A DNA stretch of 64,000 nt from Sphagnum compactum (taxonomy: Eukaryota). Positions 1,864 through 23,258 of the stretch are shown here, in pieces. Under the pieces are notes generated by a model, which made no database searches, had not been told where the DNA came from, and saw only the letters and a program-made list of their open reading frames with translations. Each line of letters starts with the position of its first letter. The stretch's first letter is position 1. Location of the stretch: NCBI GenBank assembly GCA_965153455.1, contig OZ234494.1, forward strand, positions 2,232,001-2,296,000. The letters are read 5' to 3'. The position numbers and the translations under genes are program-made.

Positions 1864-2191
1864 TGTCATGACCATATGTGTGTTAGCTATAACATATAGT
1901 GTGCAATGGTAGCGAGTAATGCCTACTTAGGGTTTCTAGGTTTATTGTTAGAGGAGAGTGGCTCTTCTGGTAGGACCCACCTTCATGTTGTCAGTGGGGG
2001 TATAAAGTGTGAAAGAGGGCTCAAAGAACATAGTTCTTTGAGTTGAGCCTAGAGCGTTGGGAGTAATTGGAGTTAGTGGAGCTTCGAGCTATGGTGTCCC
2101 ATTAGCATCGGCCTAGATTCTCTAAGTGGAGTGGGCTTAGCTTAACTGTATGTGTTTGCATCACGAGTAGATTTTTCTCGTGACATTTTCA
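1864..2191 (+). repeat. Terminal repeat A1 (5' LTR-like) of the DNMT element
   Basis: About 95% identical to 18948-19287 by eye (about 14 substitutions, a 3-nt inversion, 2 indels). TGTCATGA...TCGTGACA short inverted ends. TATAAA at 2001-2006. Confidence 0.93.
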
Positions 2192-2207
2192 CTCAAAGAA
2201 CTATGTT
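2191..2207 (+). promoter_or_regulatory. Putative self-priming primer-binding site
   Basis: ACTCAAAGAACTATGTT is the exact reverse complement of 2027-2043, which lies 21-37 nt after the TATAAA. No TGG-type tRNA PBS follows the repeat. Confidence 0.55.
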
Positions 2208-3090
2208 TTTTCGGAATAGATAAACCGTGAGGGTTTTGTGATCTCACTCTCTGGTTGTGTGGCTGAATTGGGAGTGGGTGATGTCAAAAGGAGCGCCTTG
2301 GCGAGAGCTTTTCAACGCACCAAAGAATGTTGGATTTTGTTGAGCAGATCAAAAGTTATGATCATTTGAAGTTGCTAGTTTAGGGTTTGATAGTTTTTAG
2401 TGACAGTTTACCAACGACGTTAATTTCTTAGATAAGTGGAAATTTCCTTGAAGAAAGTTGCTGAAAATTGGTAAGAGTGTAGCTAGAAAATCGATCTACA
2501 ATCTTGCAAAGACATATTGTGTTTTCATTGAGCGGATTATGCGTTATGTTTGTTTTTGTGGTGATGGTTTTTTCTGGTTTGTGCACACCTAGTGCGGAAG
2601 CGCTGTCCAATTTTTAGCTAAATAACTAGGGAAGGTCATATGCTGCAATTTTGTGAAGTTGTTGCTTGAGGGCTGAATTACATCTAGGAATTGTTTTGGA
2701 TTTTTTTTTTGTGGAGCCAATTGGGAGTATTGACCTTCAAAAGATCTCAAGTTTGTGTAGATTTATGCCCACGTTTTTTTCAAGGGGTTTCGTAGGTCAT
2801 ATTTTGGCACACAAACCTTCTTTTTAGTTGAGTTTTGGAGGGAAGGAAGATCTAGTTGTCCTCTACATTCTGGTCAAAGTAGATTGGCATTTGGTGTAGG
2901 AACGGTGGAAATATGGTTGTTTGAGTGCTCGCAGCCCAATTTCGCAACTTTTGGCTATGGTGGATTAAGGATTTTGCCGGAAATCAAGCTTTTGGCTAGT
3001 GGGGAGCACATTTTTCGACTTGTTGTGGTGGGCCGGTTGGACGAGTTGAGCCGCTACTCAGCTAGGTGGTTGAGTTGAGTACTCGTTTCT

Positions 3091-5759
3091 CACTAGTAAA
3101 AAATGGTCATTTTGCGACTGGTCCATGTGACTAATTTTTAGTTGCAAGCGACATTTGCAACAAACATTTTAATAGTCGTGTTGGACAAGTCGCATTGACA
3201 CTAGTTGCAAACGACAACGAATTTTGGATGAAAGAAAAGTCAACAAAATATGCTTTTATCTTGTGACTAGTCATATACGTATTGTCGTTTGCAACTAAGA
3301 TGCGACTTTTTGGGTGAACAATGGGAACAAGTTATGTGTCGCCACGTGTCCCAACTCTTAATAATTGAAAATATTTTATTATTATTTTGAAATAATCTAA
3401 GATGTTTAATTTTTATGTTTGGATGGTTTAGATTGTGACATGTGGTGCAATAAAAATTTGCCATGTGGCATATTAATTGATATTTTCCAAATTAAATTTA
3501 AATCAATATTTAGGTATGTAGGTTGCATTAAGTACCTACCTATAGACCTACCTACCCATTTAGGCTAAACACCTATCTAGATAAGACTTATTATCTACCT
3601 AGGCCAAATACCTACTTGGGTAGGTAGGTAGAAAAATAGGTGAACAAGTTAGGGAAGTAGGTAGTTAGGTGTAAATACATGAATATTTATATTTTACTTT
3701 GGGTCAAGTCATATTTAATGACTCACCCCATATGCCCATTTATTTTCATATGTAAATGTAAGACAAAACACCTTGTTTATATATTTTTCAAGATGGGAAT
3801 GAAAGCCAAAACATATGGGATAAACTTTTTAGTTGCAAGTCGTTTATGATTAAAAATGTTCAGTTGCAAACGACTTGCAACTAAAAATTTTATCCCATAT
3901 GTTTTGATTATCATTCCCATCTTGAAAAGTACATAATTAAGTAAATAAATGACACCAACGAGTTAACTAATTAACTAATATAATTATTAATTATTTAACG
4001 AATGAAATATAGAAATTTAAATTAATAAACTTGCTAATTAATTAATTAACAACTAAACTAGAAACTAACTAATTATTTATAGTAATAATAATTAATATCT
4101 TATTATTACTGAATTTATTATATTATTATTAAATATTAATTAATTAATTAGTTAGATAAACCATAATATTATATTAATTATAATAATTTATCAACCAATT
4201 TAATTAACTAGTAATTGGCTAATATTGAAATATTTAGCTAATTATTACTAAGTAATAAATTATTATTTCGTAACCAAATAAATTAATATAATAACTGAAA
4301 TATTTAGTATTTAATTATTAATAACAATTAATTATAAATATTGACTATTAGGTTTTTTATATCTAATAATATAATTAAAACCTAGCCTAGGGTAACTATT
4401 TTATTATAATTACTCCCATTATTATTTTCATTTATATAGTTAATAATAAATATATCAGTAAATATTTGATATAAAAGTATCTTAATTCAATTATTATTGT
4501 AGCAAGTTCGTAGCCAAGGTTAACTATTTTATTATTATTATTCATTAATTCACTCATTTATTTATTTATGAAATAATACAATAAATATTATATATTTTTC
4601 CTTCAAAAATAATTTCTGCATTTGTATAATAATTTATTAGATTTCCATTCTAACTAATACAGTAATCATTATAAAATATAAAATAATAGAACTGAAAATT
4701 AGAAATATATATTAGTAAATGATTATAATCATTGAATTATTAATAATTAATATTAATAAATATCAACTATAAATTTTTAATACAAAAATTTAAAACTATA
4801 TATTAATATTTCTTAATAATTATTATATTAATCTAATAATATTTCATAATTGATTACTTATTATAATAATAACAATAATGTAATTTTTCACTAGCCTAGG
4901 TTAGCTATTTTATTATTATTATTATATGTCACTTGTTAGACTATTATGATTTATTATAATTAAGTTTTCATTTTTTTAAAAAATAAAAATAATTCGTAAT
5001 AAGTACATTAGTCATTTGAAAAAAAATTAATAATAATTTAATTATATATTAAAAATTTATAATTACTTCAATAATTATAGAATTATTTTTCTTATCATTC
5101 TAATATCATCATCATTATGATCATTATGTAACAAGATATTACTGTTTTTAAATTTTAGTTAAAGGTAATATTTAAATTTAGTTTTTATTACATGTAATTA
5201 ATATAATATTATAATATTATATTAATACAAATAATAATAAATGTCATTTTTAATAATTTTAAGAAGTATAATAAAATGGTTTGGATAAACTTATAATATG
5301 GGCACAATATATTTAACAAATATCTTATGTATAATTTTGATATACTCAAAATATATACCATTTAATGTAACCGTAATATCGAGGCCATTTATGATAATAA
5401 TAATATTTGAATACACATCTAATATGGTTGTTCATATACATTCAAATTATACATTTATAAATTCTAATACACCGAACTATATTTTTTAAAATTCACAAAA
5501 TATACCTTCATATACTTATAGGGTTACAACTAAATTGGTCACATTTGCAACTAATGGGACATAAATTGTTCTTATTGGATGAAAACTTAACTAAATGTTG
5601 TTCACATGGAAGGATGAACACCAAACTAGCTGCAAACTAGTTGCAAATATGACCAACACAAGAAATAGTTGCAAAAATGTCCAAATGTAGTTACAAATAA
5701 CTGATAGTCGCATGTAGTCGCAAAGAGATTGGTTACATTTTAGCCAATTTTTACTAGTG
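3091..5759. mobile_element. Non-autonomous CACTA (En/Spm) DNA transposon
   Basis: Starts CACTAGTAAAAAATGG and ends CCAATTTTTACTAGTG (15/16 TIR match). 3-bp TSD TCT at 3088-3090 and 5760-5762. Subterminal repeats (TAGTTGCAA, TAGTCGCA). Extremely AT-rich non-coding interior. Confidence 0.93.
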
Positions 5760-6841
5760 TCTGGTAATAAAAAGGACACGAGGTCGACGGTATTTAGTGG
5801 TGATTCAATTTGGGTACTGGGTTTGGTGATTGGGTCATCACGGAGCAGTTTGGTGGTCCTGTGGGGACCTTATCCTCCTCCATTAAGCATGGACTCAACT
5901 CCATTCGTTGTTGCGACGACTGCCATTCTACTAGTTTTTGTTCTTGCTGTAGACGATGTTGTGCGTTTCTATCCGCAACCATGCACACTGTAAGTCGACG
6001 ACTCCATCGTCCACTCTTCCCATTTCTTCTCCCAACTCGCAACTTACTTTCCTCAGAAGAAGCTGTAACACTAACAATACAAGAAGGCCAAACAAGCAAC
6101 AACGACATTATTACACCTCCTGCACTGCTAGTACTACTACTCCTAATACTCCCCAGCTTTCCACTCGAATGGTTCGTCCAGCTGCGCGGCGGAGCTACTA
6201 CATCCAATTCCAAGAAGCCACCACCAACAAATGTTTGTAAAACTTGCTGAGCATGCTGACTACAACATCCCCGAATCACCACCATTTCGCCTCTCTCCTC
6301 TTTCACTACCTCCCACAACAAAAACAACAAAACTCCTCAACCACCACCACCACCACCACTACCACAACCACAGCAGCGTCGTCGTCCCCAAAAAAAACTT
6401 CTTCTCAAAATGTCATCCCCAACTCCCCCCAAAATAAAAAAACTTGGAAGATGAGATCAAATCTAGAAAATGAATTTCAGGAATGAAAAGAGAGAGAGAG
6501 AGAGAGAGAGATCAAATTTTGCTCAAATCTGGTATCAAATTTGAAAACTTGTGTGAAGTGAGCACTAGTCAAAAAAAATTTAAGATCTGATCTAATTCAT
6601 TAGGAATTTCACTAACAATTTGGAACCGATTATGGGAATCATGGATTGAGTGACAAACAAAAGAAAAAATTTGCAAATGGAATTTGAGTGACAAAGGTCG
6701 ATCGATCGATCCAAGAGACTAAACTTTGATCGAATTTGGTCCAAATTTGAAGACTCGAGTGATGAGCACTAGGGTAATAGTAGCAGTAGTAAAGAGATGG
6801 GGGGGGGTGTCTATCTAATTCATTAGAAATTTCACTAACAT

Positions 6842-7224
6842 TTGAATGGTGGAGATGGTGGAGTTACACGTAGTGGGTTGAGGTATCGACTACCTTCCCC
6901 CACATCATCAGTTGTTGAGGAGGACGAGGTTATCGTGAATAACAAGTCTTCCATATTACCGTCTAGTATTGCGACCCCATTGATTTGGGATATGGACGAT
7001 GGTTCTGGGGCCATGAAGGGCTCAGGTGCAGTGGGCACCATCAAATTGGAAGACTTCATTCAGGAGTTTGATTCTTGGTGTGATATGCAGATGTTACGTA
7101 ACGTTGTTCTCATCCTTCTTGGCATGGAAGGGACTGTTTCAACACTTGGAGGGTCCTCCGATGGATGATTATCATGAGTTTCGGAGAGATCATGCTACTG
7201 AGATTGAGGACTGGAGGCAGCATT
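6842..7224 (+). pseudogene. Gag N-terminal part of the DNMT element, frameshifted and interrupted by the nested Gypsy
   Basis: KLEDFIQEFDSWCDMQ...LAWKGLFQHLEGPPMDDYHEFRRDHATEIEDWRQH continues as WSPSYVSITHGG at 14526 once the nested element and one TSD copy are removed. Confidence 0.7.
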
Positions 7225-8209
7225 TGACGCACTCCCAAGTTCCTAGTGGACCCACTTGAGGGTCCAAGTATGTGGCAATGCGGAAGGAGTTGGAACTTGG
7301 AACACGCTCCCGACTTCTAGCACTAGAGGGGGGGTGAGAGGGGTGTGCTAGAAGTCCCGGGATAGACTAGGAAGAATTGACAAGCTTATTCACTCACACG
7401 GGCCTGCACGCAACCCACACAAAGTGGTTAGTGCATAGTTGGAGCACCTTTGGTGCTAGGACGAGCCACGGGCAACACGGACACACAAGACTCACCACGG
7501 CCCGGACTTGGGGGAAGCCACCCCTTCCCCCTTATAGTATACTCTGCAGCTCTCCACGGAGGCTACATCCAAATGGCTATTTTTCTCGGGACTCCCGAGT
7601 GGGAGTCCCGAAATCGCGCCAAATGGGACTCCCGCGACTTTGGAGCCCCATAACTTTGCGAGCAGACCTCGGATCACAATGCGGTCTGAAGCAAAGTTGT
7701 AGATCTCGTCGAGACCTTTCCAACGGTATGTCGCACGTCCTCTGCATCCTAGTATTTCGGGTCGATTCCCGACTTTTAGTGGTCGGGAGTCAAAACTGGC
7801 AGACTCCCGGGAATTCGACTCCCGACCCTTCTTTTGGCCATAACTTGTGTTTCAGATGTCCAAATGAGCAATGCGAGCTCACTTTAGGTATCTACGCTTC
7901 AATAGCTTTCCAATGATATAAAGAACGTCACAAGACATTGAGGTTTGACACCTGCCATTGCTCTCTGAAGTTTCGGGAGTCCACCGGGACTCCATCTCCC
8001 AAAGTGGGAGTTGCCTTGGGAGTGTGAGTGTTCACTCCCTCACACTCCCTCACACTTTCTTACACTCCCGGGAATGTGATGTGACTCTCGGGCTTTCTCT
8101 TGCCTTGACTCCCGGGCTTCCTCTTGGTTTAACTCCCGGGCTTCCTCTTGGCCCGCAACCTTATAACCCCTTTGCCTTTGGTCCCGGGCCCAAAGCTGGG
8201 GTTGCGACA
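7225..8209 (-). repeat. 3' LTR of the chromovirus
   Basis: TGACGCAC...TTGCGACA. Matches 13536-14520 with only two differences spotted (7960/14271, 8198/14509). Confidence 0.97.
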
Positions 8210-8223
8210 CTCTCCCCCACTAG
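8210..8223 (-). promoter_or_regulatory. Polypurine tract
   Basis: Minus strand CTAGTGGGGGAGAG immediately before the 3' LTR. Confidence 0.8.
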
Positions 8224-8995
8224 AAGAAGAGGTCAATGTCCTCATTGACACTTAGAATTTCTTTCAACAATTGCAATTGCTTTCTTTTGGATCCTTGGCC
8301 ATCAAATGCCGACTCCTTGCGGCCGGACCTTGCCTCAAGCTAACTTAGGCGTCCCCAAGCTTCCAACACTCTCTTGGCAAGTCCAAGGGTGTCTCAATAG
8401 AAACCCTCCATTGCTTCATCAAAAGACCTAACTAGCCTAATTGACGAAGCCCTCATTTGGGAGGCCATTTTCCAACCTTCCCCTCATGAGGAACTCAAGC
8501 CAAGCCTAATCTTGACCTAAGCTACTTGACATGACTCCTTTCCCAATCTTGCGCCTTGATCACAACAATCAAGCCTTTCCTAAAGGTATGCTTATCAAGG
8601 TACGAGAAGCGACGTTTAGGCTTTGCAAAAGCCTAAGTCCCAAGATACGCGATTATAGTACACGAACGGGGTCATGACTTCCCGCGTTGGCCGCCACTAC
8701 CAACCAACCCCTTGGGATGCACTTTGGGCATGTGCACGTCCCCGCAAGCTCACCTTGCTTGCCTCCTCTTTTGGGACCAAAATTTCTCTTAGCCCCCAAG
8801 TAGGAGTCCGATTTTGATTTGGGCTTACGCAAGAAAGTTCCATTTGTCCATGCCACTTGACAACGCCCCCCTTTCTAACATACTATTATGTTTGTGATGC
8901 AATCTCTCGAAAGTCTTTAGCCTTTATTTCACTTACAACTTGATTTGGTACATTTGTGTAACTTTCCACCCGTTAAAAGAAAGGTGATGTCCTCA

Positions 8996-10153
8996 TCACG
9001 CTCTATGTTTCCTTTGCTTTTTAGCCGGTCTATTGTGGAATTCTTCTATGGCTTCTTGGGCATGTTCCATGTCGGACTCATTCACCCAAGATGCCTCTAT
9101 TGGATGGTATCCTTTCCACTTGACCAAGTACTCCCGCTCTCGCCCCTTTAGTTGCCTTGACTTGAGCACGGCCTCCACTTCAAATTCCGGTTCATTATGA
9201 ACCAAATCCGGAGGGGGCCTTGAATTGTGCTCTCGCTCGGGCCTTGAGGCATCACGGACGACCGGCTTCAAAAGCGAAACATGAAATATGGGATGAACCT
9301 TGAGATTTTCCGGTAGTTCTAACTTGTAAGTGTCGGGAAATTTCTTTTCCAACACTTTGAATGGACCCGCATATGGGCCCAAGAACTTATGGCTCAATCC
9401 TTCGGGCAACCGGAAGTTCTTGATGTTCAACCATACTTCATCCCCTTCTTCAAAATTCACCTCTCGACGGGACTTGTCCGCAAAACTCTTGTACCTTTTA
9501 TGCGCCTTCTCAAGATTGGCCTTGGCCATCTCCCACAAGCGCCGCCTTTCTTCATCAAGTTGTGTGACCATGGGCACTTCCTCACTTGCATCACTCGGGG
9601 GTTGTCCCACCCAAGTTGTGGGCACAATTGGTGACTTGCCCGTCACCATTTGAAATGGGGTGGCCCCCGTTGCCGAATGCTCCGAATTGTTGTAACAAAA
9701 TTCGGCCAACTCCAAATGGTCCACCCAATCTTGTTGATCCGCCGCCACATAATTCCTTAGGAATTGTTGGATCACCAAGTTCACCCTCTCGGTTTGTCCA
9801 TTCGTTTGGGGCCGAAAGGAAGTGCTCATCTTGAGCTCGGACCCCATGCGCTTCCACAAGGCTCTCCAAAACTTGCTTGTGAACTTGGGGTCTCGGTCCG
9901 ACACAATGTCCTTTGGGAGGCCATGATGCTTGAACACGTGGGTGAAGAACAACCTTCCCGTCTCTTGGGCCGTTGCACTATCCTTGGTAGGAATGAAATG
10001 TGCCATCTTGCTAAACCGATCCACCACCACCATGATCGCATCAAACCCCTTTGATGGTGGCAAACTCACCATGAAATCCATGGAGACACTTTCCCACGGC
10101 CCTTCCGGAATGGGTAATGGTCGCAACAATCCCGCTTGCTTTTTATTGAGTGC
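8996..10153 (-). CDS. Integrase core, GPY/F motif and chromodomain (pol C-terminus, out of frame with the upstream pol)
   Basis: [18 protein letters not shown] and QTERVN (DDE motifs); GPYAGPFKV; chromodomain [11 protein letters not shown]...EYLVKWKGY...ASWV. Confidence 0.93.
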
Positions 10154-13100
10154 CGGTTTTGTTGGCAAGTCAAGCAAGTCTTCACGTATTCCTCCGCATC
10201 CTCCTTCAAGTTGGGCCAATAATAGGACTTCTTGAGGAATGTGGTGGTGCGCTTTGCACCACCGTGACCCGCAAGGGGCCCATCATGGCATTCCTTCAAA
10301 AGCACATCTCTTAGCCCCCCTTTTGGAACATAGAGCCGACTTTGCTTATACCACAAAAGTCCATCTCGCAAGTGGAAGTGGGACTTGATCCCCTTTTGAA
10401 TGTCTTGCTTCCTTTCCTTGGCAAATTCATCCCGGCGGCTCCCAAGTCGAACATCCTTTTGGAACTTTGTTTCCCCCACATACACCACTTTGAGTTGGTG
10501 TTTCCGACTCAATGCATCCGGCACCACATTTTCCTTCTCGGGCTTATGCCGAATGTCCACATTGAACAAAGCCAATGTGTCTTGCCATCTCACTTGTTTT
10601 GATGACAACTTTGGTTGAGTTGCGAAGTACTTCAAGGTGACATTGTCGGTCCACACCACCACATCTTTGGAACCTATGTAGTGGCCCCAAGTCTTGAGAC
10701 AATGTATCACGGCCCACATTTCCTTCTCATGGGTCGGCCACCTTCGCTCCGTCTCATTCAACTTCTTGCTTTCGAAGGCCACCGGCCTTCCATCTTGCAC
10801 TAGGACTCCTCCTATGGCAAAGTCGGAAGCATCGGAATGGATCTCAAAGTCCTTGTCAAAATCGGGCAACTTCAACACGGGCGCCTTCACCAAAATGCCT
10901 TTCAAAGTCTCAAAGGCCTCATTGCATGCCTCCTCCCATTCATAAGTCCCGGATGACTTCTTCAAAAGGTTTGTCAAAGGTGTGGCTATCTTTGCAAAGT
11001 TCTTGATGAACTTGCGATAATAAGAAGCCAATCCCAAAAAGGACCTTAAGGCGGGAACGGACTTAGGCGGTTCCCAATCCAAGATTGCCTTCACCTTGTG
11101 GTCATCCATTTTCAAACCTTCTTGGGTGATCCTATGCCCAAGGAAGTCCACCTCCGAGACTCCAAACTCACATTTCTCGAACTTGGCATACAACTTGTTT
11201 TCTTTTAACCTTTGGAACACCTTACGAAGGTGTTCCGCATGCTCCTCCAAGGAGCTACTATAGATCAAAATGTCGTCTATGTAGACGACCACAAAATCAT
11301 CAAGCCACTCTCGGAAAATGTCATTCATGAGGGTGCAAAATGTGGCGGGTGCATTGGTGAGCCCAAATGGCATCACCAAGAATTCATATGAACCATACCT
11401 TGTGCGGCAAGCGGTTTTCTCTTCATCCCCTTGTGCAATTCGAATTTGGTAGTATCCCGAACGTAGGTCAATCCTACTAAACACTTTGGCTCCCGAAAGC
11501 CGATCAAACAAGTCATCAATCCGAGGCAATGGGTACCGATTCTTCACCGTCACCTTGTTGAGGGCTCTATAATCTACGCACATCCTCAAAGTCCCATCCT
11601 TCTTGTGAACAAAAAGGACGGGCGCCCCATATGGTGACTTGCTAGGCTTGATGTATCCCTTTGCAAGGAGTTCTTCGAGTTGAACCTTGAGCTCTTTTAA
11701 CTCCTCATGACTCATTCGATACGGGGCCTTGGCGGGAGGTGCCACTCCCGGGACCACCTCTATGGCATGGTCCACTTGTCTTCTCGGGGGCAACTCATCG
11801 GGCAATTCTTCGGGCATCACATCTGGGAATTCCTCTAACACTTGCTTGATGCACTTGTGGGGGCTCACCACCTTGGTGGCCTCCTTTGGTTCAAACTCAT
11901 CCAAAACCCGCATCACACATAACATGCCATAGCCTCCCCCACATTCTTTTTCCAAGTTCTTTCCCAACATCAAGTGGATGGTGGTCCCACCCACACTAGG
12001 CACTTCATGTGCCTTCACTCGCACAATCCCATTCTTGGATGGGATCCTAATTAACCTATTGTGCCCTTCTACGAGCACATTGTTACGTGTGATGAACTCC
12101 ATTCCCAAAATGCAATCCATGCCCCCTAAGGTGGAAACTAACAAATCCACCTTGCCTTTCCAATTCCCCAATTGGAAAGGCACATCTCTTGCTTGCAACT
12201 TGGTGGGATGGGGAATCCCATCCGCAAAGTGCACCTCTATGGGTGCTTTGAGCTCCTCCAACCGGAGCTCCATTCTTTGGGCACTTTCTTGGGTTATGAA
12301 GTTGTGGGAAGCGCCTGTGTCCAAAAGACATAAAACTTCCCGCTTAGAAACTTTCCCTTTTAAGAAAATAAGGCGGTTACATTCACCTTGGACTAGGTTG
12401 GCGGAAAGGGCACTTACCTTAGGAGCCCCCTTCCCCGATTTGGGTTTGGGGCAATCCTTGGAGTAATGCCCCACTTCATTACAATTGAAGCATACTCCCT
12501 TGGGTTTCCCACTAGCATCTCCCTTGGGTTGGCTCACTTTGAAAGGAGCCCCCTTCTTGATAAAATTTCCCTTGGGTTTAAAACCCGAGCCTTGGAATTG
12601 TTTAAGCTTGTCCCCTTTTGAGGTGTCTTGGCCTCGGTTCCATTCCCCTTCATGGCGTGCCTTCTTATGAGGGAACTTGTTATCCCTTTTGAATCCGGAC
12701 TTCTCACCACACCCAACATCCGAAAAGCCTTCCACTTTCATGATGGCTTCGGTTAGTGAGGTGGGCCAATTCTCCTCAAGTTTGCGTTTGGCCCAAGTGG
12801 GAAGTCCCATCACAAAGTGGCACACCCGGTCTAACTCATGCATATGCCGAATCTCAAGCATGAGTTCGGAGTAAGCCCTCACATATTGGCGCAAGTTGTC
12901 ATTGCTCCCATTCTCAAGGTCACGGAGTTTGCATCTTGAAATGTAGTCGGAATTCTTGGGAATGAATTCCAACTCAATACGCTCCTTGAAGAATTCCCAT
13001 GTGTAGCCATGGGTCTTCCCTTCTTCTTGCCTCACCGTCCTCCACCATGTGGAGGCATAGCCCTTCAAATAGGATTGGGCAAGTTCCACGGCCGAATGCC

Positions 13101-13485
13101 GACCAACCTTGGCGGCATGAAGGTAGTCCTCCATTTCCGCAAGCCAAGCATCCACAACCTTCCGATCCCGGGCCCCATCAAAGTTCCCGGGCCTAGCGGG
13201 CTTGAACCCCACACTTTTGGATGAACCTCCCTTAAGGGCCTCAACCAATTCACTAAAATCGGGCCTATTCATTTTGAGTAAGACCTCTAATTGTTCCGGG
13301 GTGAAGAGCACCGCATTTGATTGCTCCCCTTCATTTTCATCGTCCTCATGGCTATCACGGTCTTCCTCACCTTCGGAAACATTTTGTTCTTCCCCACTCA
13401 TGGCTTGGGGTGCAACATCCGGGTCTTGGGTGGGTTCTTCCACCACGATCTCTTGGACTAGCTTGCGGGTCTTCCTTGGTGCCAT
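10066..13485 (-). CDS. Gag-Pol polyprotein (Gag, CCHC knuckle, protease, RT, RNase H, integrase Zn finger)
   Basis: Likely start MAPRK at 13485. [35 protein letters not shown]...GH...CLTC. Frameshifts into the integrase frame near 10153. Confidence 0.96.
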
Positions 13486-13521
13486 CGGGACTCTCCAATA
13501 AGTGGATCGAGCTCTCCCCGA

Positions 13522-13533
13522 GCTCTGATACCA
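13522..13533 (-). promoter_or_regulatory. tRNA-iMet primer binding site
   Basis: Minus strand TGGTATCAGAGC, 2 nt inside the 5' LTR boundary. Confidence 0.95.
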
Positions 13534-13535
13534 AG

Positions 13536-14520
13536 TGACGCACTCCCAAGTTCCTAGTGGACCCACTTGAGGGTCCAAGTATGTGGCAATGCGGAAGGAG
13601 TTGGAACTTGGAACACGCTCCCGACTTCTAGCACTAGAGGGGGGGTGAGAGGGGTGTGCTAGAAGTCCCGGGATAGACTAGGAAGAATTGACAAGCTTAT
13701 TCACTCACACGGGCCTGCACGCAACCCACACAAAGTGGTTAGTGCATAGTTGGAGCACCTTTGGTGCTAGGACGAGCCACGGGCAACACGGACACACAAG
13801 ACTCACCACGGCCCGGACTTGGGGGAAGCCACCCCTTCCCCCTTATAGTATACTCTGCAGCTCTCCACGGAGGCTACATCCAAATGGCTATTTTTCTCGG
13901 GACTCCCGAGTGGGAGTCCCGAAATCGCGCCAAATGGGACTCCCGCGACTTTGGAGCCCCATAACTTTGCGAGCAGACCTCGGATCACAATGCGGTCTGA
14001 AGCAAAGTTGTAGATCTCGTCGAGACCTTTCCAACGGTATGTCGCACGTCCTCTGCATCCTAGTATTTCGGGTCGATTCCCGACTTTTAGTGGTCGGGAG
14101 TCAAAACTGGCAGACTCCCGGGAATTCGACTCCCGACCCTTCTTTTGGCCATAACTTGTGTTTCAGATGTCCAAATGAGCAATGCGAGCTCACTTTAGGT
14201 ATCTACGCTTCAATAGCTTTCCAATGATATAAAGAACGTCACAAGACATTGAGGTTTGACACCTGCCATTACTCTCTGAAGTTTCGGGAGTCCACCGGGA
14301 CTCCATCTCCCAAAGTGGGAGTTGCCTTGGGAGTGTGAGTGTTCACTCCCTCACACTCCCTCACACTTTCTTACACTCCCGGGAATGTGATGTGACTCTC
14401 GGGCTTTCTCTTGCCTTGACTCCCGGGCTTCCTCTTGGTTTAACTCCCGGGCTTCCTCTTGGCCCGCAACCTTATAACCCCTTTGCCTTTGGTCCCGGGC
14501 CCAAAGCTAGGGTTGCGACA
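13536..14520 (-). repeat. 5' LTR of the chromovirus
   Basis: Near-identical to 7225-8209 and adjacent to the PBS. Confidence 0.97.
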
Positions 14521-14525
14521 GCATT

Positions 14526-16143
14526 GGTCTCCATCCTATGTATCTATTACTCACGGTGGTGTTGTTAGTGGTGGTACTACTACACCGTCTACTCCTAGTA
14601 CGAGCACACAAGTTGTTCCCCCACCTCTGTTTAACCCTATCACGGGAGTTCTTTTTGAGGCTGAAGAAGAACTACCAGGGGGTGAAGACGGAGAAGTTGA
14701 AGAGTCTTTAAGAATTTGAACGAAGACTGGTGAGAGTCTTCGTGAGGCATACACTCGTATGCGATGGTTAATTGCAGTTACCCAGGGGGTGACGGAGGCT
14801 CAGGCAGTCCAATTTTGGTATGGGATTCTAGACAAGGAGTTGCGACAGAGAGCACGCGGGTGACTCTCATGAGTGACGATTCTCCCACATTGGCCCATGT
14901 GTTTGCTTTTTCTGAGAAGATAGAGCTTAACATGGTGGAGGAGAGGGTGGTGACATCTGGATTCAATAGGGATATAGTTACTACTTCTCGTGGACAACAG
15001 TCCACCTCACAACCTCATACTGGTGGAGGTGGGAGTCGTGGAGGTCAGGTACGACCTCAGTCAGGTTCTGGAGGGACGGGTGCACAAAGACCGTTGCCTT
15101 CATTCGTTAGTCAACAGCAGGGACAATGTTGTTGGACATGTGGTGGTGCTCATATTCGGAGGGATTGTCCACAGGAGAGTGGTGGACGGACTTTGGCTGA
15201 TGGATCTCAGTCGACACAAGTTCAATGTGATAACTGTGGCCGGGTCGGCCACCCTCGTGAGCGTTGTTTTAACCTTTACCCAGAATTGAGATTAGGTCGT
15301 GGTGGAGCGGCTCAAAGAGGTCGTGGTGGTAGAGGTGGTAGAGGTGGTGGGGGTGGTAGAGGTACACCAACGGTCAGGGCACCTCCCGTGATCACTCCTC
15401 CGCTTACGACAGAGGCAGCTATGGCTGCTAGGATTGAGCAGTTGGAGCAAAGGCTTGCTACCATGGCAAGTTTCCAGCATCGATCACATTCAAGAGGTGA
15501 GGCTCCCACATCTTATGGGGGAGATGATCTCTTTTATATGGCTAGTGTAGCAAAAATTGAGGCGTCCATTGCAGTGACGAGAGGCGTCACTCAAGCCTCG
15601 GAGCCACGTGGGGCAACTGTGGAGTTGGATCCACAGAAGGGTGAAGCTGGTAGACAGGCCAGGCTTCCCCAATCATTCTTGTTGTCTGAAGTGGTTAGGA
15701 CTCCTTCCATGGTTCCTACACCACCTATTGAGCCAACAGTGGGGCCAACAACATCGACATCACATGTAGTGGACACGGATGTATCATTGAGTGCAATGTC
15801 GCGGATGGTGACTTCAGTGTTGGGATCTCCAACATTTTCGGCTAATGATTTGATGGCGTCAGGAGTTGACTTAACTCGTGTATTTCGACTAGCAGCCACA
15901 TTGTGTGAACATGGGAGTGTTGTTGCTACAAGTGTCGAGGTGTGTGAGGGTGTTGATGTGGGGCAACGTGTGGCGGGGGATGTTGTTGTGGAGCAACTCG
16001 TGGTATCAGGTGTGGATAGTCCTTGGCAGGAGGCGACAGCTAAGATGGATGCATTACCAGCTCGATCAGCCATTAATCGTGAGAGGCTTACACCTGGTGT
16101 GTGTGTGTGTTGGATAATCGGAATGGTATTTTCCGGTTGGTGA
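14526..16143 (+). pseudogene. Gag C-terminal part of the DNMT element, with two zinc knuckles and an RGG-rich region
   Basis: GESLREAYTRM gag-like motif; CWTCGGAHIRRDC and CDNCGRVGHPRERC; RGRGGRGGRGG. Several frameshifts, the last in a (GT)n run near 16100. Confidence 0.8.
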
Positions 16144-16560
16144 GTCCTACGGGCCAGGTGTATAGACCAAATCGGGTTTTGTTGGATTCTGGTGCCCAAC
16201 CCTTGATGTTGGGGAAGGCAGCATGTATTGGTTTGGGTATTCGAAGGTCAAAGCTTGAACCGTGCCCATTCCAAATTTAGACATCACTTGGTGGAGCCAG
16301 TGGTAGGTCTAACTTCATGACACGTGAGAGATTGTCGGTGCAAATGAAACCGAATCATGTGACAAATAGCTCTAAGTTAGAAGTGACTGCTGTTGTTACA
16401 GCAGCTAAATCGTATGATGTACTAGTTGGAGGTGCCGTGTTGTATCCGGTGGGTTTTTAGATGGATTAGTGGACAAAGACAACAACTTATCAACCTGGTT
16501 GGCAGTCTGGGGATGGACGGATGAGCCAGGTGCCTGTGAGATTTATTTCTGGGGTTCGAC
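16110..16560 (+). pseudogene. Retroviral-type aspartic protease
   Basis: RVLLDSGAQPLMLGK (DSG at 16185-16193) and SYDVLVGG, in the same frame as the downstream DNMT-RT ORF. In-frame TAG stops at 16278, 16458 and 16467. Confidence 0.85.
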
Positions 16561-16899
16561 CAGGAGGGTCTCCCCCAGAGGTGTTGGCATCAGTTGCTGG
16601 TTTTAGTGGAGTGGTCACTTGGCTAGGTGACTTGTTGCAGGGCAACATTTTAGCTATTGACACTTCGGTCTACAAGGATATAGAGGAGGTTTCTAGCTTT
16701 GTTGCAGCAGGGTCCTCCTCATTGGATGTTCCACTTTGGCGTTCGAGTGGGGTGTTACGGCAAGATGCCGATCGTTTGGTATCACAAGCTTAGCGTGAGG
16801 CTTTTGTGCCTGTGGAGGAGGAGGAGGTTCCACAACGGACTCCTATTTCTGGTCCTGTTGGGTTGTCTCCATTGGATACTACACCCATTGCGTGGGAAT

Positions 16900-17870
16900 A
16901 TCCTTCCGAGGGTATTTGCGTGTTGGATCTATTTGGTGGGATCAGCACTGGTTTGGCAACAGTGCTTCAAGCGGGTATTCTAGTTCGGAAGTACCTTTAC
17001 GTGGAGAGAGATGAGACCGCGAGGAGGGTTTCATCGCGCCATCTTGCATTATTGAAGCGGCGATATCCTGAGTTGTTGCCGAGGTCGGCTATTCGAGGAT
17101 ATCAGCGAGCTTTGCCATCAGACATTGCATTGTTGGGGGCGGAAGACCTTGCGAGAGTTGGTCCTATTAATTTGGTGATTGCTGGATGGCCATGCCAGGT
17201 TCATATTCGGGCTGGTCATGGTGAGGGATTACGTGACCCTCAATCTCGTATGTTTTGGGAGATGTTGCGGGTGTCATGCCATCTTCAGACACATCAGGCA
17301 CGTGTTCCCGCGTACATTCTGGAGAATGTACCTTTGTTGGGTGATACTAGGTCTCATGTGATGGCAAGTGTACACCAAATCCGGTCTTGGATTGGACCAA
17401 CGGTTTTATTGGATGCAGCGAGGGTTGGTTCGCGTGCTCATCATCCCCGATTGTGGTGGACGAACTTGTTACCAAGTGAGGTGTTGAAACGGGCATATGA
17501 GACAGTACCACGATCTTCTCACCTCATAGTGGATAGTATCTTAGATATTGGGCGACGTTCTCAGGTGGTGAAAGTTGTTGATAGGTCACCCATGGAAGTG
17601 GTGAACCGAGTGGGACAGCCTAGGATGGCGTTACCCACATTTGTCAGTTTTCCAGCATCACATGCCTATAGAGAGGGTGGTCCAGGGCTTGTATGGGATA
17701 GTTGTTTGCAGCAATTAGTGGAGCCCAATGCCGATGAGAGAGAGCGTGTAATGGGGTTTCCTACAGGAGTGACATTTGTCCCTTCCATTTCCAAGGCTTC
17801 ACGTCGACAAGTGTTGGGTCAAGCCATGGACAATTGTTTGACTTGGATTGTTAGCCTTGGTATGGCTGAG
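16900..17870 (+). CDS. C5 cytosine DNA methyltransferase domain (DNMT3-like, non-permuted) within the retroelement pol ORF 16806-18983
   Basis: Ordered motifs: I VLDLFGGISTG, II YVERD, IV IAGWPCQ (PC at 17190-17195), VI YILENV, VIII AHHPRLWWTN, IX ERERVMGFPTGVT, X RRQVLGQAM. Confidence 0.92.
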
Positions 17871-18149
17871 CAGCGTCGGCTCAGAGCCACATTTGTAGTA
17901 GTTACACCTCTTGTGAGCTCGCTGTCCACCGTGACGGTAGAGGCATCGACTGGGGGCGAGGAAAGTTGTACTTTTCATCCTTGGAGTACATGGGATGTGT
18001 TGGGAAAGCATGTGAAGGTTGTGGCCCATGCTGTTGGAGGAGTTTGTTGCTCCATTGGTGTTCCATTGGGTGACTTGGAGGAGCGTGTGGTTTTTCCCAA
18101 GGTTTTTGCGTCGCAATCCATGGCATCGTCCTCTTCCTCTAGTGTGTGT

Positions 18150-18935
18150 ATCGAGGAGACTTGGGAGTCTTTGATGGGGCCCAAGCTAATAGGAGGAGAG
18201 AGGCGACGGTTAATGCAATTCCTAAGAGCTTACAGGATTTGTTTTACCTTTAGTATGAACGAGTTGGGTGCTTTGATTGGACTTGGTATACGGATTGAGT
18301 TGGCTAGTGACACGCCAATCTTCCGTCATCCTTATAGATATAGTGATATGGAGAGGGACTTGATTCGGAGTCGGACGTTGGATCTATTGGAGGCTGGATT
18401 AGTGGAGTTGTCGCATGGTGAATACGCATCAGCCATTGTCATGCCTGCCAAAAAGGATGTACATGGTAACTACACGGATAGGCGGATGTGTGGAGACTAC
18501 CGTCCTATCAATCGGCAGACTAAGTCCGATAAGTATGCCATGCCTACACTTGAAGAGATCTTTGATGTTGTGGGACATGCGAAGGTTTTTAATACACTTG
18601 ATCTTCGAGCAGGGTACCATCAGTTGCCGATTCGAGACGAGGACAAGGCCAAGACCACATTTTGGGGCGTCAACTCTCACGGGAAGGATTGTTTGTATCA
18701 GTGGAAGTTCTTACCCTTTGGGTTGAAGAATGCGCCTGCCGAGTTTCAACGTGTGATGGATAGGATCTTAGCAGGGTTGGATTTTGTTCGGTGTTATATC
18801 GATGATATTGTGGTATATAGTGATACCGTGGAAGAACACCAAATTCATCTACAAATTGTGTTTGAGCGGTTGAAGGCTCATGGTCTTCGTCTACATCCTG
18901 GGAAGTGTAAGTTCTTCCAGGAGAGTGTGGAGTAT
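18150..18935 (+). CDS. Ty3/Gypsy-type reverse transcriptase, truncated after ESVEY (RNase H and integrase missing)
   Basis: PYRYS, RMCGDYRPIN, LDLRAGYHQ, LPFGLKNAPAEFQR, CYIDD (YIDD at 18795-18806), KCKF. In frame with the methyltransferase. Confidence 0.95.
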
Positions 18936-18947
18936 TCGCACGATAAC

Positions 18948-19401
18948 TGTCATGACCATATGTGTGTTAGCTATAACATATAGTGTGCTATGGTAGCGAG
19001 TAATGCCTACTTAGGGTTTCTAGGTTTAGGGTTAGAGGAGAGTGGCTCTTCTGGTAGGACCCACCCTCATGTTGTGAGTGGGGGTATAAAGTGTGAGAGA
19101 GGGCTCAAAGAACTATGTTCTTTGAGTTGAGCCTAGAGCGTTGGGAGTAGTTGGAGTTAGTGGAGCTTCAAGCTATGGTGTCCCGTTAGCATCAGCCTAG
19201 ATTTCTCTGAGTGGAGTGGGCTTGGCTTGACTGTATGTGTTTGCATCATGAGTTTTATGATAGTAGATTTTTCTCGTGACATTTTCAATTGTGGTACACA
19301 TGTATTTGTGTATGCTCTCGTCTATGTTATGTGTTTGTGTGTGTATGTGAGTATGGTATGTCAGCGATGTATGTTGTATGACGATATGTATTCGCACGAC
19401 A
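18948..19401 (+). repeat. 3' terminal region of the DNMT element: repeat A2 (18948-19287) plus GT-rich segment B (19288-19401)
   Basis: A2 matches A1. B has no counterpart at the 5' end, but its last 14 nt recur at 18932-18945. Confidence 0.88.
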
Positions 19402-22064: not shown

Positions 22065-23258
22065 ATGGAGTCAGTGTCTACGTCCATGCGTGATTCGCTC
22101 CGGCAATGTCAATTCCTTTCGGATTTGAAAAACTCTTGTGAACATGCTGTACAAGAATTTTACATTGCGGTGAAGCAGCGAGCATTGAAGTCTTCTCTGT
22201 TAGGCGTTCCTTTGCTGCCGCGAAGAAACGGTCGCTTCTCATCTGTCGTGAACGGGATCAAAACGTGGCCGAGACGAGCCAGCCGCGGATCGCGAGAACA
22301 GTCGTCGCCAAACGCGCAACCGGCATCCTCTCCGGCAAGACGTTATCGTCATTGTCGCTCGTTTCCCGCGCCTGGACTCACGTTCGCGTCCTGCAACGTT
22401 ACACAGTCGCGCAGTAAGTACAGCCCTGACATCCTGAAGGCTTCAAGGCCGACCTCGTTACTTGGAGATGGCGAGGAGGCATTGCCTATCGGCACGTTAC
22501 CTGCATCACAGAACAAGACTTCTCTTAACATCGCGGTCAGTTCCGATTATGATAAGTTTTGGACCGACGTCATGCCCGATCTCCATGATTTTGTGAGGAA
22601 GGAAGAGTTTGATATATACATGAAGGAGGGAATACAGGAGTTTCACAAGAGGAGTAATTGCTATTCAGCACCAGAGATGCCGCAGGGAGATGCCTGGGTT
22701 GAGGATCTGCCGGAATTCGTAGGAATTCTGACCTCTTCTTATACTACTTCAGAAACCGAGCAGGAAGGCGCCGGAGATTCATCGGTCGTGACACAGTCGG
22801 AGAACGAAACTGCAAGCTCTTCTGCAGCATCGGAAGAGCCGGCCGGAGTTCAGCGATTTCGCCGTCGGTTCAGGGGAATCCGGCTGAAAGACAACAAATG
22901 GATCTCGGAAATCAGGCCTTCGCGCGCGAAGAGGACAGTGTGGCTGGGCACGTACGCGACGGAAGAAGAAGCGGCCCGCGCATTTGACGCCGGTATATTT
23001 TATTACCGAAAATCTAACATTCCCTACAATTTTTCCGATTCTCCTGAAGTGCTTCCGGAAGTGAATCAAGGACCGCAGGAGGTGAGTGCCAAATTCGTGA
23101 AGACAGAGGCAAGAAGAAATGCACAGAGAGCGCGGCCATCGACGGATTCTTCACATCAACTCCTCACGACTGCAATTCAAGAGCAAGCCTCCCCATCATC
23201 GGGATCGTCCAGGCAATGGTTCAGAGGATGCAGGGGAAGGAAGTCATATTCCCAATGA
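22065..23258 (+). CDS. AP2/ERF-domain transcription factor
   Basis: Open frame from the ATG at 22065, with AP2 domain RFRGIRLKDNKWISEIRP...VWLGTYATEEEAARAFDAG...YNFS (about 22865-23035). The true 3' end could be spliced. Confidence 0.88.
   Translation: MESVSTSMRDSLRQCQFLSDLKNSCEHAVQEFYIAVKQRALKSSLLGVPLLPRRNGRFSSVVNGIKTWPRRASRGSREQSSPNAQPASSPARRYRHCRSFPAPGLTFASCNVTQSRSKYSPDILKASRPTSLLGDGEEALPIGTLPASQNKTSLNIAVSSDYDKFWTDVMPDLHDFVRKEEFDIYMKEGIQEFHKRSNCYSAPEMPQGDAWVEDLPEFVGILTSSYTTSETEQEGAGDSSVVTQSENETASSSAASEEPAGVQRFRRRFRGIRLKDNKWISEIRPSRAKRTVWLGTYATEEEAARAFDAGIFYYRKSNIPYNFSDSPEVLPEVNQGPQEVSAKFVKTEARRNAQRARPSTDSSHQLLTTAIQEQASPSSGSSRQWFRGCRGRKSYSQ

Follow-up and report, generated by a model that had tools for sequence, protein, structure and literature searches.

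Complementarity at a repeat border consistent with self-primed reverse transcription in a methyltransferase-bearing Gypsy element of Sphagnum compactum

A Gypsy-type retrotransposon in Sphagnum compactum carries, at the inner border of its 5′ terminal repeat (A1), a 17-nucleotide stretch (2191-2207, ACTCAAAGAACTATGTT) that is the exact reverse complement of a segment within the same repeat (2027-2043, AACATAGTTCTTTGAGT). We consider it somewhat probable, given the sequence characteristics described below, that the element primes reverse transcription with its own RNA and that this 17-mer serves as the binding site of its minus-strand primer. The published computational definition of a self-primer calls for a complement of at least 10 bp, located in the 5′ LTR, to a stretch beginning 0-5 bp past the LTR (Neumann 2019, main text of PMC6317226), and the window copy, judged by its sequence, conforms to this definition. 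By ‘window’ we mean the whole 64,000-nucleotide stretch of DNA that was analysed; all coordinates refer to it, and the features of the element are on its forward strand.

A preliminary description of this DNA had reported the same complementary pair, and the match is indeed exact. When A1 (1864-2191, TGTCATG...TTTTCA) was shuffled by mononucleotides 20,000 times and a perfect complement in A1 to the stretch beginning 0-5 nt past the repeat was sought, no shuffle equalled 17 nt, whereas one reached at least 13 nt and 16 reached at least 11 nt. The border itself was also placed correctly, with the alignment to the 3′ copy of the repeat (A2, 18948-19287) running to ...TTTTCA and stopping at 2191 and 19287. 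A1 and A2 exhibit 94.8% substitution identity (17 mismatches among 328 aligned positions), in addition to indels of 11 nt and 1 nt. Moreover, the reported absence of a TGG-type tRNA primer-binding site after A1 extends to all 11 of the 11 copies with a 5′ end: none has a TGG 0-5 nt past the repeat or anywhere within 19 nt, and the first TGG is found at +20 or beyond, or is absent. As an internal control, a chromovirus nested in the window has TGGTATCAGAGC 2 nt past its own LTR. A search with ARAGORN revealed no tRNA genes within the 64,000-nt window.

The partner segment in A1 belongs to a perfect palindrome of 10+3+10 nt (2020-2042), which we call H1. It reads CTCAAAGAAC-ATA-GTTCTTTGAG(T) over 2020-2043, and the self-primer is proposed to be its right arm (2033-2043). 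The loop of H1 is ATA in A1 and is inverted to TAT in A2, and because of this flip, nucleotides 2192-2207 are also a 16/16 direct match to 19104-19119 of A2. The proposed self-primer binding site (PBS*) is assigned to 2191-2211, wherein a core at 2191/2192-2201 is followed by perfect complementarity to 2207 and looser complementarity to 2211. Only about 11 nt form a solid core throughout the family, embedded in a looser complement of 21 nt, and the uninterrupted 17 nt are particular to the window copy.

Other members of the family were sought by scanning metagenome contigs with the last 20 nt of the repeat, which yielded 72 loci, and the A repeat is common to 23 of these. A1 aligns with the 23 loci at 72-88% identity, and the flanks upstream of A differ from copy to copy. 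After A, 12 of the 23 loci continue with CTCAAAGAAC... and then with the leader, four of them reaching as far as the start of gag. Viral contigs provided no additional examples, as the DNA anchor found 0 loci there and neither protein P0002 nor alignment A3 had relatives. Several related plant genomes contain multiple copies of the family, which is also found in contigs from RNA libraries.

Pairing was counted in 11 sequences, comprising the window and 10 of the 12 loci with a 5′ end; L004, from which the palindrome is deleted, and L072, which is a duplicate of L068, were left out. The complementarity is retained in these copies. In the 11-bp core (2033-2043 with 2191-2201), 94.2% of the 121 cells are paired, and this value falls to 31-58% when the partner is slid by one to three columns. 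One or two core positions are unpaired in six of the ten other copies. Three core pairs exhibit double-sided changes, a number equalled in 4 of 500 shuffles. Over the 21-bp extension, 89.6% of 231 cells hold a pair, and five double-sided changes are observed versus 1.8 ± 1.1 in shuffles, whereas the local H1 hairpin is just 86.4% paired and has no excess over shuffles. Covariation between the two motifs is evident as double changes above the shuffled level in both the core and the extension, but the three compensatory pairs of the core all stem from one locus (L068/L072). At L068, the primer arm has undergone G>A at three positions, each answered by a C>T change in the site. The overall C>T/G>A rate of this locus is 21% of G/C sites, and an arithmetic estimate gives p ~2e-4 for the observed pattern under independent decay. 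L004 looks like the L068 insertion in another genome, because an upstream flank is common to both. Given that L004 is unlike L068 at one compensatory position, at least one of the changes may postdate the insertion. In the family copies, 22 of 33 downstream loop positions agree with the reverse complement of the H1 loop in the respective copy and 5 of 33 with its direct sequence, and the downstream motif reads as a reverse complement rather than as a direct repeat or duplication.

Folding predictions add a second element to this region. A U5 hairpin (2161-2183) with a 7-bp stem (2161-2167 with 2177-2183) is located 8 nt before the primer site. This hairpin is present in the predicted MFE and centroid folds of the window copy, and also in the RNAalifold consensus of the 11 copies (columns 132-138 with 159-165). 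For an RNA that begins in the H1 loop, RNAalifold predicts a closing helix together with the conserved 7-bp U5 hairpin. The fold of the window copy has a predicted energy of −62.2 kcal/mol (z = −3.1).

To our knowledge, experimental proof of self-priming exists only for Tf1 and a few of its relatives. The primer of Tf1 consists of 11 nt, with cleavage occurring between nucleotides 11 and 12, and Lin and Levin are said to have described, in 1998, a requirement of Tf1 for a U5-IR-like stem-loop. A comparable route for the Sphagnum element would have the transcript begin in or just before H1 of repeat A, at about 2020-2033. The 5′ segment of the RNA, including the core GUUCUUUGAG(U) at 2033-2043, would fold back across the approximately 150 nt of R-U5 and pair with the core ACTCAAAGAAC at 2191-2201, where the paired stretch opens with the final base of A1. 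Cleavage of the RNA by RNase H at the 3′ end of the duplex would next release a 3′ OH, from which synthesis would proceed into U5, as it does in Tf1. The polypurine tract (PPT) upstream of a second repeat segment, B1, would serve as the plus-strand start.

In the preliminary description, the start of transcription had been placed by means of a TATAAA at 2001. This sequence is present (2001-2006), 26-42 nt upstream of the complementary segment, but it is specific to a subfamily. Among the 23 family repeats that are readable at this place, TATAAA is found in three (A1, A2 and L030), TATAG in 19, and neither in one (L004, which has lost the palindrome); L071 begins past this place. The TATAAA argument for the start depends on a 2-nt insertion specific to the subfamily. 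The earlier proposal of self-priming is supported by the conserved complement at the border, by the absence of a TGG-type site and by the U5 hairpin, but its TATAAA basis applies only to the subfamily.

The architecture of the carrier bears on how this site should be interpreted. On the basis of its domains and repeats, we classify the element as an integrase-type Gypsy retrotransposon with a C5-DNA-methyltransferase and with split direct repeats in the order A1-interior-PPT-B1-A2-B2. The initial view of A1 and A2 as whole terminal repeats had to be abandoned. A2 continues into a conserved 3′-terminal segment of 114 nt (B2, 19288-19401, ATTGTGG...CGCACGACA) that recurs after A elsewhere, and a second B precedes A2; therefore, we consider the element a split-direct-repeat Gypsy and not a canonical LTR element. 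In the window copy, this second B is represented by a B1 remnant and an AC spacer (18932-18947), which correspond to the last 14 nt of B (GTATTCGCACGATA) plus 2 nt. The sequence TATTCGCACGATAAC (18933-18947) agrees at 14 of 15 positions with the 15 nt that end 2 nt past the end of B2. Among the metagenome loci, B is found directly after A in 11 of 23. The full 3′ end is readable in one metagenome locus only (L037), and there a complete B1, with the polypurine tract AGGGGGGCGA directly before it, is followed by A and B2.

Insertions of the element have TG..CA ends. The window copy is bounded by an identical 4-bp target-site duplication, ACTC, on the left (1860-1863) and right (19402-19405), and the chromovirus LTR reads ..CAACTCCCAC.. 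at the place of this insertion. Five independent A-B units have both flanks readable, and the 4-bp duplications are perfect in three of these (ACTC in the window, AATA in L031/L061 and ACTT in L035) and agree at 3 of 4 positions in the other two. Several other readings of the repeats were considered and rejected. B2 is not duplicated target DNA, as it resembles the chromovirus LTR no more than shuffled sequences do (a score as high in 570 of 1000) and is found after A at different genomic sites. A2 is not a separate solo insertion in the RT gene, as 1864-19401 lies as a single unit between the two parts of the solo LTR that hosts the element and between the copies of the ACTC duplication. Likewise, B flanked by A does not constitute a miniature LTR element, as no TGG is found where A begins and A does not end in a purine-rich stretch.

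The canonical arrangement of an LTR element is also not observed. PPT and PBS* bound a B+A unit, whereas integrated copies begin with the start of A and terminate with the end of B, and B is missing from their 5′ end. If plus-strand synthesis were to start at the PPT before B1, then the logic of reverse transcription would define the LTR as B+A. Relative to the B-A...B-A form predicted from PPT and PBS*, the integrated form (A...B-A-B) is circularly permuted, and the replication cycle is therefore non-canonical. This makes the role of a site located where A1 ends less certain.

The first part of the leader (2212-3090), which directly follows A and PBS*, is 80-85% homologous in the 12 loci with a 5′ end, and the second part (5760-5866) has homology in L008, L032, L045, L053 and L064. 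The end of the leader and the start of gag (6846-7224, with gag from about 6992) have homology in four of the 5′ loci. Searches by tblastn with the Marchantia proteins P0003 and P0004 align residues 1-83 with 6992-7223 and residues 81-595 with the continuation of gag, which tblastn and translation locate at 14521-16143 and which contains two CCHC knuckles (P0001). The pol ORF (16794-18931) encodes a C5-DNA-methyltransferase domain followed by an RT that ends after ...FFQESVEY. Pfam detects PF00145 in this ORF (E 9.7e-6, 25.7 bits versus a cut-off of 22) along with RVT_1 (E 8e-30), and the translation contains the strings DLFGG, GWPCQ and ENV, which we take to be methyltransferase motifs. The ORF is 63-71% identical to two Marchantia proteins, and its relatives carry PF00145. 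Only gag, the methyltransferase and a truncated RT are present in the window copy; L037 has an integrase C-terminus and a PHD finger, and the full Gypsy set of PR-RT-RH-IN is present only in the relative P0005 (42% identical). The 3′ ORF of the family matches the integrase C-terminus and PHD of a relative that has an rve and an integrase zinc domain. The PHD finger (E 5e-7) is the last domain of this ORF, in which no chromodomain was detected, and no tyrosine recombinase was seen in the element family. The RT of the element and that of the neighbouring chromovirus share 37% identity.

Several sequences interrupt the window copy. A nested non-autonomous DNA transposon (3091-5759), which lies outside the family, has terminal inverted repeats starting with CACTAGTAAAAA and a 3-bp duplication, TCT; contigs of X1, X2, X4 and X20 bypass it by joining 3087/3090 to 5760/5777/5780. 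A copy-specific, low-copy insert in the leader (5867-6845) is missing between the homologous blocks in L032, L045, L053 and L064, and contig depth in four bins over 5993-6756 is 15-58 versus hundreds to thousands around it. A young chromovirus on the reverse strand (7225-14520), also outside the family, is a later insertion into gag, with 985-bp LTRs of 99.8% identity, the target-site duplication GCATT and, according to Pfam, the domains gag-PR-RT-RH-IN-chromodomain. The element itself resides in an old solo LTR of chromovirus type. The 5′ part of this LTR (1719-1863) aligns locally to the LTR of the nested chromovirus with a score of 68 versus 22.9 ± 4.1 for shuffled sequences (0 of 1000 equal). 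Divergence from the window sequence sets in at 1718/1719 in many contigs, and the loose ends among the matches listed read TGTCGCAACCC... The rest of the interrupted LTR (19402-20177) ends with GGGGGTGCATCA and is 71.8% identical to the nested chromovirus LTR over 706 nt (E ~1e-92).

Given that the LTR partner is palindromic and that the downstream motif folds on itself, the complementarity could serve another RNA or DNA structure. Within the 5′ leader, the two motifs might form a conserved long-range helix, or else two hairpins, whose function is, for example, packaging or dimerisation, the control of translation or polyadenylation, or help in strand transfer, with something else acting as the primer. 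Each motif can fold locally: the downstream motif alone forms a mean of 9.2 of 10 pairs, many of them G-U, and 7-10 of 10 positions are paired in every one of the four possible arm combinations of the two motifs. The 21-nt complement also exceeds the 11 nt of the Tf1 primer. We nonetheless judge this explanation to be unlikely, because the end of the helix coincides with the repeat border, which is the required place of a primer site, and because the long-range pairing (94.2%) surpasses that of the local H1 hairpin (86.4%) and is the only one of the two to exceed shuffles. Furthermore, no alternative primer site is visible, there being no TGG before +20.

It is improbable, in our assessment, that the motif after A1 is part of the machinery producing the split direct repeats, as a repeat of the H1 palindrome serving as a landmark of template switching or recombination when the A...B-A-B form is generated, and not as a primer site. 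Such an origin would fit the departure of the integrated form from canonical LTR logic, the exact direct repeat that the 16 nt after A1 make with the flipped-loop motif of A2, and the proneness of palindromes to template switching, of which the A1/A2 loop inversion is an instance here. However, the downstream loop in the family follows the reverse complement (22/33) and not the direct sequence (5/33), and no further copies of the motif, allowing at most one mismatch, are found at the B or PPT borders of the window element and L037.

Half-tRNA primers have been predicted in several plant Ty1/copia lineages, including Bryco (main text of PMC6317226), and the site might similarly bind a small RNA of the host, for instance a tRNA half or a fragment from inside a tRNA, in which case the complementarity to the LTR would be secondary. 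This possibility appears quite remote for a site that has no TGG and that co-varies with the element's own LTR, as would not be expected of a site for a host RNA. Finally, chance similarity or a functionless neutral relic is hardly credible, even though the unbroken 17 nt are specific to the window copy and dead copies gather C>T changes, given that none of the 20,000 shuffles reached 17 nt, that the core is conserved in 11 of 11 sequences despite the 72-88% identity of the metagenome copies, and that the 20-nt anchor used to fetch them overlaps neither motif.

Self-priming by the element's own RNA, which we favour on these grounds, invites comparison with the Tf1/Tj1/sushi group. As in that group (PMC4600332, which describes the self-primed mechanism of Tf1), the site directly follows the 5′ repeat and its complement lies inside the repeat at the presumed start of the RNA; there is likewise no tRNA site, and a stem-loop in U5, here predicted, adjoins the primer site. 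Unlike in the Tf1 group, the complement is about 21 nt long and the LTR partner is palindromic, and the start of the transcript and its cleavage are predictions. The element also differs from the group in carrying a DNA methyltransferase and split direct repeats instead of symmetric LTRs, and it has a C-terminal PHD finger where the Tf1/sushi chromoviruses carry a chromodomain.

Self-priming in plants is not new, having already been predicted for other elements. According to the main text of PMC6317226, it was predicted for 12% of the plant LTR elements surveyed, and the two plant lineages with this prediction are Tcn1 chromoviruses of mosses and club-mosses and the TAR Ty1/copia elements. Tcn1 and TAR resemble the Sphagnum element in having an equal computational signature and a bryophyte-like host range. 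The words methyltransferase, PHD, Marchantia and Sphagnum have 0 occurrences in that main text, and, judged by it, the lineage of the Sphagnum element is apparently absent from the groups treated there.

The closest counterpart in organisation is KnitGypsy-Dnmt3 of Klebsormidium nitens (de Mendoza 2018, PMC5890265), which shares the C5-DNA-methyltransferase in the Pol ORF, the DIRS-like A-coding-B-A-B repeats and, insofar as the Sphagnum-type copies retain them, the Gypsy-type domains; the Sphagnum element differs in that its host is a land plant. Primer-binding sites and self-priming have 0 occurrences in the main text of PMC5890265. Elements of the DIRS/Ngaro/PAT type also have split repeats in the order A1-interior-B1-A2-B2, in which the internal B1-A2 joint mimics a joint of the element ends. 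In contrast to these, the Sphagnum element has TG..CA ends, 4-bp target duplications and integrase-type relatives. The carrier is more unusual than the primer site; it combines the insertion marks of an integrase with the repeat order of tyrosine-recombinase elements. Integrase-type marks with DIRS-like repeats are otherwise noted in one Klebsormidium figure legend (PMC5890265), and no explanation was found in the literature searched.

As a tentative model, which we regard as possible but doubtful, a DDE-integrase, methyltransferase-bearing Gypsy element of land plants might make self-primed cDNA with a B+A LTR and integrate it in circularly permuted form. Acting on a two-LTR circle or a concatemer, the integrase would cut at the internal B/A joint (...GACA-NN-TGTC...), an abutted-ends site resembling the circle junction of bacterial IS elements. 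Given that the family is multi-copy and is found in RNA-library contigs, its copying and integration are accessible to sequencing of RNA ends and extrachromosomal DNA. If the permutation model is true, it would explain how DIRS-like split repeats come to have TG..CA ends and 4-bp target duplications, and self-priming would preserve the match between the primer site and the LTR from cycle to cycle. More generally, a third, unrelated-looking plant lineage with this signature would mean that self-priming is more widespread or has multiple origins.

Immediately at the end of A1 (1864-2191), the first of two copies of the terminal repeat A, lies the sequence ACTCAAAGAACTATGTT (2191-2207), which matches the reverse complement of 2027-2043 at every position, as the preliminary description had claimed. 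Reading the sequence also bore out the TATAAA that it placed upstream of the pairing partner (2001-2006) and the end of homology between A1 and A2 (18948-19287), whose alignment stops directly after ...TTTTCA. The two repeats differ by 17 mismatches in 328 aligned positions, plus one 11-nt and one 1-nt indel. The TATAAA, from which the preliminary description derived its expected transcription start, results from a 2-nt insertion and is present only in A1, A2 and one metagenomic copy (3 of 23 readable family repeats); TATAG occupies the same place in 19 of the 23, and copy L004 has neither.

As far as TGG-type sites are concerned, the claim that no tRNA primer binding site follows A1 also proved sound. 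A younger chromovirus nested in the element served as a control and carries TGGTATCAGAGC 2 nt past its LTR, which we take to be the usual initiator-tRNA type of site. Nothing like this tract follows A1, where a TGG-type site is absent, and no TGG occurs within 19 nt past the repeat in any of 11 5' copies (the first is found at +20 or later). The partner within A1 is a perfect palindrome, H1, which reads CTCAAAGAAC-ATA-GTTCTTTGAG (2020-2042). Since the H1 loop in A2 is TAT, and therefore inverted relative to A1, the 16 nt past A1 also recur without a mismatch, in direct orientation, within A2 (19104-19119). The two loops (2030-2032, ATA; 19114-19116, TAT) thus differ within one element while both arms are intact, which looks like a hairpin-mediated inversion after insertion.

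Metagenome contigs scanned with the last 20 nt of A yielded 72 loci, 23 of which share repeat A at 72-88% identity. Flanks upstream of A vary between loci, both where A continues into a leader and where it continues into B, a 114-nt segment, and A-B units whose flanks vary in this way represent solo units. Some loci share their flanks (L004, L068 and L072; L020 and L064; L002 and L043; L031 and L061; L054 and L058) and each such group is a single, somewhat diverged insertion recovered from different samples or related genomes; independent copies are thus fewer than loci. In other copies the 17-mer region stands directly after A and is followed by a leader of ~1.3 kb and then gag, which identifies A1 as the family's true 5' end.

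To assess conservation of the pairing, the window and ten 5' copies were aligned (11 sequences), leaving out L004, whose palindrome is deleted, and L072, a duplicate of L068. An 11-bp core (2033-2043 with 2191-2201) is paired in 94.2% of 121 cells and includes three pairs changed on both sides, a number reached by 4 of 500 shuffles, whereas sliding the partner leaves 31-58% paired. The 21-bp extension (2023-2043 with 2191-2211) is paired in 89.6% of 231 cells with five pairs changed on both sides, against 1.8 +/- 1.1 in shuffles (4 of 500 reach five). For the local H1 hairpin the figures are 86.4% of 110 cells and one such pair, with no excess over shuffles. What other copies retain of the 17-mer pairing is the 11-nt core inside a looser 21-nt complement, and the perfect 17 nt are peculiar to the window copy. 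The covariation proposed as a check in the preliminary description does exceed shuffles in both the core and the extension, with the three compensatory core pairs all coming from the single locus L068 (primer arm ATTCTTTAAAT, site ATTTAAAGAAT). In this locus, 21% of G/C sites carry C>T/G>A changes, and by our own arithmetic three matched double hits with zero single hits have a probability of ~2e-4 under independent decay. Because L004 shares the upstream flank of L068 but departs from it at one of these three positions within the site, the compensatory pattern may partly postdate insertion.

The complementarity at the end of A1 is a real, conserved feature, and on its sequence we lean towards considering it a Tf1-type self-primer site. 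By this mechanism, the 5' segment of the RNA would fold back onto the site, RNase H would free a 3' end, and minus-strand synthesis would begin into U5. For an RNA begun in the H1 loop, RNAalifold predicts the helix without constraint, as well as a 7-bp hairpin, likewise conserved, that lies 8 nt upstream of the site, and the window copy folds in the same way (-62.2 kcal/mol, z = -3.1). Such a fold could also be read as a structural RNA helix in which the two motifs serve another role, although we judge this unlikely. Past ...TTTTCA the 23 loci show only two continuations, CTCAAAGAAC... plus leader in 12 and B in 11. That the motif after A1 is a landmark of the split-repeat machinery seems rather improbable. 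Less probable again is a host small-RNA site. When the loop of the downstream motif is compared with the H1 loop of the same copy, 22 of 33 positions agree in reverse complement and 5 of 33 in direct orientation (ATA/TAT in the window; GTA/TAC in L005 and L071), which settles that the motif is a complement rather than a direct repeat. Chance is a very improbable source of the complementarity, as the 17-nt match is far above the chance level: when a perfect complement to the stretch beginning 0-5 nt past the repeat was sought in 20,000 shuffles of A1, none held one of 17 nt and 16 held one of at least 11 nt.

The putative self-primer site belongs to an element with unusual borders. The 145 nt upstream of A1 (1719-1863) belong to a chromovirus-type LTR, of which they form the 5' part in diverged form, judged from their alignment score of 68 (shuffles 22.9 +/- 4.1; 0 of 1000 reach it). 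Contigs part ways at 1718/1719, where the loose ends read TGTCGCAACCC..., and the remainder of this LTR resumes at 19402 (71.8% over 706 nt). Because the LTR is interrupted at 1863 and resumes at 19402, the stretch 1864-19401, flanked on both sides by ACTC, is a single insertion into an old solo LTR. This solo LTR is itself flanked (1664-1718; 20178-20250) by a similar sequence of ~60 nt, including 34 nt at 88% identity, which far exceeds target-duplication length. The right end of the insertion lies beyond A2, after 114 more nt that form a second copy of B (B2, 19288-19401, ending ...CGCACGACA). Both flanks can be read in five independent A-B units, three of which have a perfect 4-bp duplication (window, ACTC; L031/L061, AATA; L035, ACTT), while the other two match at three of four positions (L002/L043 and L069).

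Directly upstream of A2 (18932-18947), the last 14 nt of B and a 2-nt spacer are fused to a truncated RT, and the window copy has therefore lost a region that began midway through RT and reached almost to the end of B1, the first copy of B. At the joint (18929-18947), RT meets B at a common GTAT; the deletion removed the RT end, RNase H, integrase, the polypurine tract (PPT) and most of B1. Only one locus, L037, covers a full element at its 3' end; there, an ORF and its stop are followed by ~130 nt and AGGGGGGCGA, and then by an entire B1, a spacer of 2 nt, A and B2. Its ORF matches the integrase C-terminus and PHD finger of P0005, a relative protein with a full Gypsy domain set (40% identity, E 3e-43; PHD E 5e-7). 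The window borders, the continuations of A and L037 together give the family layout A1-primer site-interior-PPT-B1-A2-B2. In both the window and L037, these split repeats combine with TG..CA ends and 4-bp target duplications. Inverted matching is found at 10 of 16 positions between A start and B end, and at 5 of 16 between B start and A end.

Because the PPT precedes B1, the logic of reverse transcription makes the LTR B+A, and with the primer site following A, the integrated form, which begins at A and finishes with an extra B, is a circular permutation of the expected LTR. Integrase may, in one model, act at the internal B|A joint (...GACA-NN-TGTC...) of a circle with two LTRs or of a concatemer, a reading weakened because the alternative product A-B-A...B was not seen among 5' loci with readable flanks.

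The element encodes a gag with two CCHC knuckles (14746-16143, + strand) and a 729-residue ORF (16794-18983, +), both identified by Pfam scan and translation. In the latter, a C5-DNA-methyltransferase domain, with the strings DLFGG, GWPCQ and ENV that we take to be methyltransferase motifs, precedes the RT of this Gypsy-type element and shares the ORF with it (16794-18931, +). The nearest named proteins are two 'hypothetical' proteins of Marchantia polymorpha (63-71% identity), and more distant relatives from metagenomes and green algae carry PR, DNMT, RT, RNase H, integrase and a C-terminal PHD finger. Because the Marchantia proteins map from 6992 on, across the nested chromovirus, gag begins 4.8 kb past A1, a distance inflated by two later insertions. 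The first is a 2.67-kb non-autonomous DNA transposon (3091-5759) whose terminal inverted repeats begin CACTAGTAAAAA and which has a 3-bp target duplication, TCT; by these features it is presumably CACTA-like. It is bypassed in contigs from one RNA run and three DNA runs, which join 3087/3090 to 5760/5777/5780. The other copies of the host element lack this transposon. Its ends occur in very many copies in the contig runs, and within its very AT-rich core 3772-3845 and 3868-3941 form an inverted repeat of 74 nt. The second is a copy-specific stretch of ~1 kb in the leader (5867-6845), missing between homologous blocks of L032, L045, L053 and L064, which has single-copy-like depth over most of its length (bins 5993-6756) and may have been captured from the host. 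Within this stretch there is a (GA)n run at ~6487-6510, and contigs from both RNA and DNA runs cover the first part (5873-6317). The nested chromovirus (7225-14520, -) sits in gag and is complete (gag-PR-RT-RH-IN-chromodomain), with 985-bp LTRs at 99.8% identity, the target duplication GCATT and the tract GTGGGGGAGAG upstream of its 3' LTR. Next to the cluster lies an ORF of 424 residues (21984-23258, +), probably a host gene of the AP2/ERF type, whose match to the AP2 domain is weak (27.9 bits, short of the 33.3 that Pfam sets as cut-off).

According to the relevant passages of PMC4600332, self-priming was demonstrated in Tf1 and has been suggested for related elements, Tj1 among them. In plants, the main text of the Neumann survey (PMC6317226) predicts it for 12% of LTR elements surveyed, namely Tcn1 chromoviruses of mosses and club-mosses and TAR copia elements, on the basis of a complementary stretch of 10 bp or more that begins 0-5 bp past the LTR; the methyltransferase element has such a complement. 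Its likeness to Tf1 concerns the proposed priming mechanism and does not by itself place it in that clade; the Tf1/sushi-Tcn1 group has a chromodomain, and this element shows none. The carrier type is already in print for Klebsormidium, where KnitGypsy-Dnmt3 is described by de Mendoza et al. (PMC5890265) as a Gypsy element with a Dnmt and DIRS-like A-coding-B-A-B repeats, the same split-repeat layout as in the window family. Neither a primer site nor self-priming is brought up in their main text, and Marchantia and Sphagnum are named neither there nor in the main text of PMC6317226. A search for KnitGypsy-Dnmt3 by name returned nothing beyond de Mendoza et al., and a paper found in a further literature search cites such elements only with reference to that 2018 study. 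In the main texts searched, DNMT-carrying elements come from Klebsormidium and dinoflagellates, none from bryophytes, and none of these texts treats the primer site of a Dnmt-carrying Gypsy element with DIRS-like repeats. For this family, we consider the permuted, unexplained architecture a more interesting lead than the self-primer site.
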